63,217 nucleotides of DNA from Escherichia coli (GTDB lineage: Bacteria; Pseudomonadota; Gammaproteobacteria; Enterobacterales; Enterobacteriaceae). The notes below the pieces were generated by a model that worked only from the letters and a program-made list of their open reading frames with translations, was not told where the DNA came from and did not search any database. The position numbers were made by a program, and so were the translations under genes. How positions within the stretch are numbered: the first letter of the stretch is position 1; every line of letters starts with the position of its first letter. The DNA is taken from assembly GCF_003334255.1 (NCBI RefSeq), contig NZ_QOWU01000026.1, one strand, 5' to 3'. Of the stretch, positions 61,415 through 62,509 are shown one piece after another.

Positions 61415-62509
61415 TTGTTCTATGTGAGCACAGGCTCGCTTATCTCCTCAGGAAGATTAAAACCAGGCAAAATCAAACGTGTTTCAGCAAAGAGCGATCA
61501 AAACGGTATCATCGGAGAGTTTGATACCGAGTTTATGGATGATGCAAGGCATTATGAAAATTTTATAAGCGTTAATTTTTTTGGAGATGCTTTTTATCAT
61601 CCTTATTGTGCCAGCGTAGAAATGAAGGTGCATGTTCTTACATTAAAATCAAGTAAGTCCGACTTTAATGCAAAGCGCGGACTGTATGTTGCCAGTATGA
61701 TTAATAAAGCTTTAAAGGGGCGTTTTAATTATGGTCAACAGTTATCGAGTTCCAAACTCAGAGATGGAGAATATTTCATCTCATTACCAGTGAAAAATAA
61801 TGAAATTGACTGGTTTTTTATGGATAATTATATAGAAGAGCTGGAAGCGGCCCATATAGAAGAGCTGGAAGCATACCTGATAGCTGCTGGGCTGAGTGAT
61901 TACCAACTAACGGAAAAAGATTATCTTATCCTGGAACATTTTAAAAATATTGAATTTTCAGGCTTTCCTGTTACTGAGTTATTCTCAGTGTGCAATACAG
62001 GAAACATATTGTCTAGAGACATCATAGAAAATAGTGGGGATGTTCCTTATCTTTGTGCTAGCCGTGATAATAACTCTGTTAGTTCTTATATCGCCTATGA
62101 TGACTCACTCTTGGAAAAAGGGAACTGTATTTTTATTGGTGGTAAGACATTCGTTGTAACTTATCAGGAGCGAGACTTTTTTTCAAACGACAGTCATAAT
62201 TTGCGACTCTATGTTAACAATGAGGATGGAAGGACAAAGTTTGCTTATTTGGGCATTATTTCATGTATTTATAGGTCTATTTCACATAAATATTCATGGG
62301 GGGATAGTGTTAGTAATAGAAAAATTAAGAACGATGTTATTTGGTTGCCAGTGAAAAATAAGTCACCTGACTTTTGTTATATAAATGACCTTATTTCAGT
62401 TGTTCATAAGCTTGTCATTAAAGATGTTGTCCAGTACGCAGAACGCAAAATGAACGCATACAGGCAAGCTATAACAAGTCGCGGTTATGATGATTCTGGT
62501 GTCAGTTAA
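61415..62509 (+). CDS. specificity (S / BcgI-B-like) subunit with two TRDs
   Basis: Two TRD-like halves (..EWGEFRIGDLFYVSTG.. and ..FPVTELFSVCNTG..). Each is followed by a conserved helix (ISLPVKNNEIDWFFMDNYIEELE / IWLPVKNKSPDFCYINDLISVVHKL). Coordinates follow the ORF track (TTG start). The frame is open from 61334 with no ATG. Confidence 0.7.
   Translation: MFYVSTGSLISSGRLKPGKIKRVSAKSDQNGIIGEFDTEFMDDARHYENFISVNFFGDAFYHPYCASVEMKVHVLTLKSSKSDFNAKRGLYVASMINKALKGRFNYGQQLSSSKLRDGEYFISLPVKNNEIDWFFMDNYIEELEAAHIEELEAYLIAAGLSDYQLTEKDYLILEHFKNIEFSGFPVTELFSVCNTGNILSRDIIENSGDVPYLCASRDNNSVSSYIAYDDSLLEKGNCIFIGGKTFVVTYQERDFFSNDSHNLRLYVNNEDGRTKFAYLGIISCIYRSISHKYSWGDSVSNRKIKNDVIWLPVKNKSPDFCYINDLISVVHKLVIKDVVQYAERKMNAYRQAITSRGYDDSGVS
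61831..61878. repeat. 24-bp tandem duplication in the S-subunit central spacer
   Basis: TATAGAAGAGCTGGAAGC occurs at 61831-61848 and again at 61855-61872, encoding IEELEAAH-IEELEAYL. Confidence 0.9.

Follow-up and report, generated by a model that had tools for sequence, protein, structure and literature searches.

Relation to known restriction-modification systems

Several bacterial restriction-modification systems carry short in-frame repeats in the specificity (S) subunit, between its two target recognition domains (TRDs), and the number of repeat units can alter the DNA sequence that is recognised. In the type IC enzymes EcoR124I, EcoR124II and EcoDXXI such a repeat lies in the first connector helix of S; EcoR124I and EcoR124II differ by one TAEL unit and have spacers of N6 and N7, respectively (PMC3874165), the copy number being altered by unequal crossing-over, which turns N6 into N7 and leaves the half-sites unchanged (PMC3874165). 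Natural strains of Neisseria gonorrhoeae with one or two LEAT repeats in the type IC enzyme NgoAV methylate GAC N6 TGC or GAC N7 TGC (PMC6789123), and in the type I group 2 S genes of Helicobacter pylori three repeats correspond to a separation of 7 bp and four repeats to 8 bp, according to a methylome study of 2014 (PMC3983042). Here we describe a variable 24-bp repeat in the S gene of an Escherichia coli prophage, found in a stretch of 63,217 nucleotides of contig NZ_QOWU01000026.1 (assembly GCF_003334255.1), the whole of which is called the window below; the S gene directly follows a gene, RM, for a fused nuclease and methylase.

The variable 24-bp repeat itself is already known from an H. 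pylori orthologue, and the E. coli prophage copy adds another case. Furuta et al. (2011) reported 0 to 4 tandem copies of 24 bp (CAGTGTCGGCTCGCCGAACTTGAG) between the TRDs of a BcgI-like “type IIG” S protein of H. pylori (PMC3077401). Translated, that unit reads QCRLAELE, and it is visible in homologue P0055 (...FIAELEQCRLAELEAYL...), which is 49% identical to the window’s S protein over both TRDs and marks the H. pylori HP1471/JHP1364 protein (S.Hpy99XXII family) as orthologous. The 24-bp, 8-residue units of the two proteins (QCRLAELE versus AAHIEELE) coincide in position, and their number varies in H. pylori, where 0-4 extra copies occur; in both, TRDs are swapped at flanking conserved sequences and an obvious start codon is missing. 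They differ in setting, the one being chromosomal in H. pylori and the other carried by a lambdoid prophage of E. coli and Salmonella, and in the position of the second repeat, which is a poly-G tract inside S in H. pylori, whereas the ON/OFF tract described here is a heptanucleotide repeat in RM.

Five H. pylori alleles have assigned motifs (CYA N6 TGA, CYA N6 TCC, CYA N6 TGY, CYA N6 TTC and CYA N7 TRG), and an engineered motif, CYA N7 TTC, has also been published; the supplementary table of PMC10423294 gives motifs without repeat numbers. The H. pylori S proteins matched in the database are not tied to the strains with known motifs (J99, N6; UM032, N7), so that they give no calibration of unit number against spacer length. 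Our literature search found no report of an effect of unit number on the recognised spacer for the BcgI-like S family, and no account of the E. coli prophage version or of the GACCAGC tract in its RM gene.

The repeat described here shares with EcoR124 its place in the first connector helix, and with NgoAV the population-level variation in copy number that has a consequence for specificity in the gonococcal enzyme. The EcoR124 unit, however, measures 12 bp or 4 residues against 24 bp or 8 residues here, EcoR124 is a three-subunit type I enzyme with HsdR, and its spacer effect was shown experimentally, whereas ours is inferred. NgoAV likewise differs in its 4-residue unit and its type I organisation, and a frameshift in the poly-G tract of its hsdS gives a third specificity. 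The type IIB systems BcgI and BsaXI have the same two-gene plan, a PD...ExK nuclease-N6-adenine methylase fusion with a separate two-TRD S protein whose CR1 and CR2 helices form an antiparallel pair. They are distant in sequence (E = 3e-44 with the 637-position PADLOC profile, against 6e-228 with the profile of the locus’s own family), and the parts of the literature available to us mention neither a variable CR1 repeat nor a frameshift junction for either of them.

A variable repeat in the central helix of the specificity subunit

The S gene and its parts are laid out in the window as follows.

61352-62509, + strand: S (specificity) coding region, in the -1 frame relative to RM
~61385-61810, + strand: TRD1, within S
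61811-61885, + strand: central conserved helix CR1 (25 residues, 146-170 of the structure model), which holds both repeat units
61830-61853, + strand: repeat unit 1, codon register 61832-61855, encoding IEELEAAH (sequence, Tandem Repeats Finder and a repeat finder)
61854-61877, + strand: repeat unit 2, codon register 61856-61879, encoding IEELEAYL (the same tools and comparison with homologues)
~61955-62371, + strand: TRD2, within S
62372-62479, + strand: distal conserved helix CR2 (36 residues, 333-368 of the model)

The two 24-bp units agree at 21 of 24 positions (88%, repeat finder), and Tandem Repeats Finder reports an array at 61832-61883 with a period of 24, 2.2 copies and a score of 69. 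They read ...AATT ATATAGAAGAGCTGGAAGCGGCCC ATATAGAAGAGCTGGAAGCATACC TG... in the window and share an exact stretch of 19 nt, ATATAGAAGAGCTGGAAGC; all three differences fall within the last five bases and alter residues (AAH versus AYL). By our own estimate, a 19-mer recurs at a lag of 24 nt with a chance of ~4^-19 per position, which is negligible in 63 kb. The tandem duplication proposed in an earlier, sequence-only reading of this DNA is thereby confirmed by the sequence and by both programs, except that the exact stretch, given there as 18 nt, is one base longer. The same reading had placed the repeat in the helix joining TRD1 and TRD2, which is borne out by the structure model: the units occupy residues 153-168 of the long helix predicted at 146-170.

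This AlphaFold model, built with 30 homologues (predicted local distance difference test score, pLDDT, 88.6), shows in order a globular domain, the helix 146-170, a short helix 180-189, a second globular domain and the helix 333-368, so that CR2 would be expected to be the antiparallel partner of CR1. In Foldseek the model resembles solved S subunits, both of type I (1ydx at E = 3e-16, as well as 1yf2, EcoKI and EcoR124I) and of BsaXI, a type IIB enzyme (8w0p_C, E = 5.5e-8). Pfam Methylase_S matches the S open reading frame (ORF) in two stretches, and Pfam, PADLOC, the model and Foldseek agree that the gene beside RM encodes a specificity protein of its own, with a pair of TRDs and a pair of conserved helices.

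The locus is present in 30 of the 5,426 complete E. coli genomes, 18 of which carry the window’s S gene with two units. In strains SCU-104 and JNEC-KY173 the match spans 1,225 bases as against 1,201, the surplus being one extra exact 24-bp unit, and the stretch is otherwise without difference. Among homologues from the protein database, the window’s TRD pair occurs with two units (P0003, P0007), with three (P0004-P0011, of which P0004 lies on 107 contigs and P0006 on 69) and with four (P0001, P0002). A sister allele, which combines another TRD1 (TRD1-B) with the window’s TRD2, has one unit in P0015, two in L011 and L115, and three in L009, L114 and P0029, and a third TRD1 type is accompanied by two, three or four units (P0027, P0016, P0014, P0038). 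The internal units of the 3- and 4-unit alleles are identical at 24 of 24 DNA positions, the slightly divergent unit 2 is the terminal unit in all alleles, and CR2 is letter-for-letter identical across alleles with one, two, three and four units. The copy number of an in-frame repeat in CR1 differs, in other words, among otherwise identical alleles: it takes the values 2, 3 and 4 on an identical E. coli background and 1 to 3 in the sister allele. In E. coli, whole units have thus come and gone recently, always in frame. The sequence-only reading had named an ancestral two-unit helix frozen in all homologues as the finding that would speak against it, and no such uniformity is seen.

Genomes with a different TRD1 are near-identical to the window from 61816 or 61830 onward (matches H21-H23). 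Because these partial matches begin at those positions, TRD1 must have been exchanged by recombination exactly at the central helix.

Two observations on other S alleles may be added. In E. coli E110019, a 1-bp deletion relative to the window truncates S (L003 4105-5034; span 1,200 versus 1,201). Other E. coli S alleles carry a second 24-bp tandem repeat right after CR1, consisting of 1 to 8 copies of a unit for GLADSRTR, at the following places.

Outside the window: GLADSRTR repeat alleles at L010 6547-, L012 2703-, L014 6511-, L110 4927-, L111 5376- and L112 5303-

Turnover of the unit across the family

A homologous unit, (I/V)AELEA(E/Q/R)(R/H), is repeated at the equivalent position across phyla. 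A regular-expression count over 98 loci from many phyla gives two units in 50, three in 15 and four in one, most of the calls of “1” and “0” being degenerate second units or other TRD layouts. Codons are alike between the units inside one gene (GTCGCCGAGCTTGAGGCT twice in L017, GTCGCTGAACTAGAAGCT twice in L098) and differ between genes, with codon identity at same-residue positions of 85% within genes versus 50% between them (permutation p <= 1e-4). This within-gene homogeneity implies that copy number has turned over repeatedly, and the codon pattern is that of concerted evolution, in which units are lost and duplicated anew, or converted, time and again. The window’s two-unit state is one state of a variable-number tandem repeat rather than a frozen ancestral helix.

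Predicted effect on the recognised spacer

We read the variable 8-residue repeat of CR1 as a variable-number tandem repeat that probably changes the spacer recognised by the S subunit of a prophage-borne type IIB/IIG system. Units would be gained or lost by slipped-strand mispairing or by unequal recombination between near-identical units, a mechanism suggested because the added units are identical at every position. Each unit would lengthen CR1 by ~12 Å, or ~2.2 turns (8 helical residues, ~80-100 degrees), and, by analogy with the type IC enzymes, would move and rotate TRD2 relative to TRD1, leaving the half-sites unchanged while the non-specific spacer grows. A step of ~2-3 bp per unit would be expected, both from the type IC rule of 4 residues per 1 bp, which extrapolates to 2 bp, and from the simple geometry of helix and DNA. 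In DNA, 2 bp correspond to 6.8 Å and 69 degrees, and 3 bp to 10.2 Å and 103 degrees. In the model, CR2 measures 36 residues against 25 for the two-unit CR1, a surplus that may permit CR1 to grow without a change in CR2. The change of unit number, the swapping of TRDs at the same helix and the ON/OFF tract of RM would together yield a rapidly changeable specificity of restriction and methylation.

The natural alleles with one to four units, identical TRDs and identical CR2 form a ready-made series for the question of how a connector helix measures the distance between half-sites. For EcoR124, a review notes that how the change of register is accommodated is not clear (PMC3874165); here the steps comprise 8 residues, and the enzyme is of type IIB, a class that also cuts at fixed distances.

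A BcgI-like system rather than type I

The partner of S is encoded immediately upstream.

59218-61355, + strand: RM gene, with an N-terminal PD...ExK nuclease motif and an N6-adenine methylase, BcgI alpha-like (annotators call only 59394-61355)

RM and S form a BcgI-like type IIB/IIG system. PADLOC matches RM over its full length to REase_MTase_IIG (E = 6e-228) and S to Specificity_II (E = 9e-25), and Pfam N6_Mtase matches RM. The PD...EYK nuclease motif sits in the N-terminal 60 residues, and P29-D30 ... E48-Y49-K50, F359ATGSAG and N457PPY are invariant across 30 homologues; nuclease and gamma-class N6-adenine methyltransferase are thus fused in one polypeptide. The catalytic Glu53 of BcgI belongs to the same kind of motif (PMC3592470). 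The sequence-only reading had assigned the locus to type I, an assignment that we reject because no HsdR is encoded nearby and the NCBI hsdM equivalog model scores RM at 36 bits, far under its cut-off of 243: besides RM and S there is no ORF of at least 200 aa from Q (58158-58688) to the end of the window, and in related loci S is directly followed by tRNAs or lysis genes with no HsdR between. A type IIB enzyme would be expected to cut on either side of a bipartite site and to methylate both DNA strands; sites of bipartite form, TCA N6 TRG among them, are methylated by the H. pylori relatives. Structural comparison of RM adds little: a sequence search of the PDB with RM gave no match, and its AlphaFold model is poor (pLDDT 61), the Foldseek matches to HsdM, BsaXI RM and BpuSI being weakly informative on the nuclease domain.

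Across Firmicutes, Bacteroidota, Proteobacteria, Campylobacterota, Spirochaetota and candidate phyla, RM proteins share 70-73% identity with that of E. coli; the hosts of this uniform RM (L030-L109) include Clostridia, Neisseria, Gracilibacteria and Saccharibacteria. In 114 of 117 loci RM is immediately followed by S. The uniformity of RM across phyla points to a wide and recent horizontal spread.

A hypervariable heptanucleotide tract in RM

The 5' coding region of RM holds a second tandem repeat.

59227-59303, + strand: (GACCAGC)x11 tract, RM 5' coding region, encoding (DQRPATS)n

Whichever of its three frames is read, the tract encodes one and the same cyclic heptapeptide. RM homologues extend ~30 residues further at the N-terminus than the annotated 653-aa ORF, and the RM of one E. 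coli relative begins with MLPDQRPATSDQRPATS... In the window, the ATG at 59218, with the Shine-Dalgarno sequence AAGGA 8 nt upstream, opens MLP(DQRPATS)n and soon meets a stop, and the body of RM continues in another frame. Related loci carry 3, 9, 16, 19, 23, 34, 65, 66, 67, 80, 88 or 120 copies; JNEC-KY173, a strain with three CR1 units, has 66 and an in-frame RM. Copy numbers divisible by three (n = 0 mod 3) give ORFs of 693-966 aa from ATG 59218, as against 35 aa with the window’s n = 11; at n = 2 mod 3, as in the window, there is no in-frame start. For n = 1 mod 3, rescue might come from a further ATG at 59210, which lies in a different frame; this is the frame that PGAP uses for strain 04-00955. 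An RM start at 59219, with 10 or 13 copies as the ON state, was considered and dropped; ATG 59218 with ON at n = 0 mod 3 fits the ORF lengths.

The length of the locus is different in each of the 30 complete genomes, even within sets of isolates that, to judge by their names, come from one study. The tract lies inside the ORF, varies between strains and sets the frame by its copy number, as a phase-variable simple sequence repeat does; a 5' coding repeat that switches a methylase gene is known in (ACAGC)n of M.Btr188III (PMC4996451).

Annotation suffers at this locus. RefSeq/PGAP places a reverse-strand “YXWGXW repeat-containing protein” or a hypothetical protein over the tract (L001 1503-1994, L003 1500-1994, L111 2117-2797), which we regard as spurious; RefSeq further takes an internal TTG (59394) as the start of RM and internal ATT or GTG codons as that of S. 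The reverse-strand call and the internal starts are probably artefacts of the repeat and the frameshift.

A candidate -1 frameshift cassette at the RM/S junction

The end of RM and the beginning of S are arranged as follows.

61346-61352, + strand: slippery heptamer G_GGA_AAG, in phase as X_XXY_YYZ, comprising the last two RM codons and one base
61353-61355, + strand: RM stop TAA, directly after the heptamer
61358-61396, + strand: hairpin with a 13-bp stem, 61358-61370 pairing with 61384-61396

RM ends in GCG GGA AAG TAA, and the -1 frame reads GGG AAA GTA AAT... across the same place. The hairpin begins 5 nt 3' of the heptamer and has a folding energy of -23.3 kcal/mol (z = -5.9). The S frame contains no ATG, GTG or TTG from its upstream stop (61331-33) to TTG 61415, and homology to S N-termini (...PLSxKLxxVEWGEF...) sets in at ~61355, where RM has just stopped. 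Of 117 loci, 114 have S in the -1 frame with respect to RM, and an in-phase slippery heptamer stands within the last five RM codons in equally many (GGGAAAA in 53, GGGAAAG in 47, AAAAAAG in 12, AAAAAAA in 2), against a background of 0.85% per codon in the remainder of the RM ORFs. Where the N-terminus of TRD1 is a different one, E. coli alleles show A_AAA_AAG in place of G_GGA_AAG, and the variant alleles have a hairpin of other sequence in the same place.

The downstream structure covaries. Over 87 aligned junctions a 12-pair stem is 94.5% paired, versus 34-49% with the partner slid, and six pairs change on both sides (one of them is U-A in 35 sequences, C-G in 24, U-G in 24 and G-C in 1). 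Compensatory cells number 53, versus 9.7 +/- 3.3 in shuffles, and the observed value was reached in 0 of 500 shuffles. The junction, which combines a slippery heptamer with a covarying structure behind it, looks like a programmed -1 frameshift site, and we infer that at least some of the S protein is translated as an RM-S fusion, of ~124 kDa, with the predicted trans-frame peptide ...FAGK-VNSPLSDK... at the junction. A fusion of this kind would recall those type IIB enzymes that consist of a single chain, and it might set the 2:1 ratio of RM to S.

Independent initiation of S at ATT 61406, TTG 61415 or GTG 61424 was considered as the main route and rejected, because it would delete the conserved ...VEWGEFRIGDLF strand and because many relatives have their first canonical start only 100-460 nt into the gene. 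An S-frame stop stands immediately before GGG in some loci, and an ATGA overlap start is present in only six. The lack of a start codon in S was remarked on by the H. pylori workers too, in a system that is natively active. A literature search found no report of frameshifting in RM/S genes, and Rfam has no family at the RM/S junction.

Alternative explanations

Several points weigh against the proposal that unit number sets the spacer. For the BcgI-like family the proposed link is an analogy with EcoR124I/II and NgoAV, and in the 2014 methylome study no type IIG S allele of H. pylori could be matched to a motif (PMC3983042). The known H. pylori motifs have spacers of N6 and N7 only, a narrower range than a step of 2-3 bp over one to five units predicts. 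CR1 varies while CR2 stays fixed, and eight residues are not a multiple of the heptad, so some unit counts may be inactive. These last observations would suit an activity gate, in which only one or two helix lengths allow (RM)2S to assemble on DNA and the repeat acts as a switch of ON/OFF state or efficiency: CR2 does not follow CR1, eight residues would by our own reasoning disrupt the heptad register, the RM of the same locus already has an ON/OFF repeat, the H. pylori relatives are on record with two spacers only, and several cloned BcgI-like relatives are inactive. Such gating seems unlikely to us all the same. Alleles with two and with three units are both common and are conserved in many unrelated phyla, which is hard to fit with one of them being OFF, an argument that does not reach the alleles with one and four units; moreover, in every S-subunit repeat system that has been tested, copy number changed the spacer while activity was kept.

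The state of the window’s own genes also counts against a working spacer switch, since RM is out of frame with its 11 heptamers, S has no ordinary start codon and this copy may not be expressed at present. The length differences might on these grounds be neutral drift without functional meaning in a decaying, unexpressed prophage gene pair, and the truncated S of E110019 and the several copies flagged as partial by PGAP would fit. We hold this to be improbable: every length change consists of whole in-frame units, RM keeps its catalytic motifs and its 70-73% identity across phyla and is in frame at many loci, and the lack of a start is shared by the whole family and goes with a conserved frameshift signal, so that it looks like a feature rather than decay. 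That the differences are errors of assembly or sequencing is highly improbable, and this explanation is effectively refuted already. Short-read assemblies are indeed error-prone at tandem repeats, but the arrays measure just 48-96 bp, the three-unit state is found in two independent complete genomes and in protein clusters on 107 and 69 contigs, and the variation recurs in unrelated taxa and in the independent H. pylori report. A spacer-changing repeat thus remains the reading that we prefer.

The locus as a possible generator of diversity

Taken as a whole, the locus is more interesting than the single repeat. The tandem repeats that serve as its dials are the CR1 unit, the GLADSRTR repeat of other alleles and the RM heptamer, with a probable recoding signal besides. 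A fuller picture, possible but put forward tentatively, would be a diversity generator with three dials on a lambdoid prophage, in which the CR1 units (1-4) step the spacer by ~2-3 bp, the heptamer tract turns RM ON or OFF, and S is supplied by a -1 frameshift as an RM-S fusion, through G_GGA_AAR or A_AAA_AAG and a covarying hairpin conserved across bacterial phyla. By analogy, the frameshift would set the ratio of RM to S as that of dnaX sets tau to gamma. If true, it would account for the failure of annotators and of the H. pylori workers to find a start codon for S, and if confirmed it would matter for recoding biology. For the epidemiology of E. coli and Salmonella, the locus means that a prophage can alter the methylation and restriction pattern of its host while gene content is unchanged. 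For annotation, it is a case in which current pipelines truncate both RM and S and place a spurious protein on the reverse strand of the heptamer tract.

Genomic setting

The RM-S pair lies between NinG, NinH and Q plus hok on one side and the lysis genes of a lambdoid prophage on the other, and Escherichia phage PhiR12_3 carries an identical pair, the RM of which its record names “BcgI alpha chain-like”. A hok/sok module stands just upstream of RM (58719-59043), with an Rfam match to sok at 58719-58893 (E = 2e-27) and the Hok ORF at 58889-59043. Downstream of S, the Rfam small RNA STnc100 is matched over its full length at 62696-62912 (149 bits, E = 3e-34), and in related prophages tRNA-Ile/Arg/Arg genes and the remnant of a methyltransferase gene come next.

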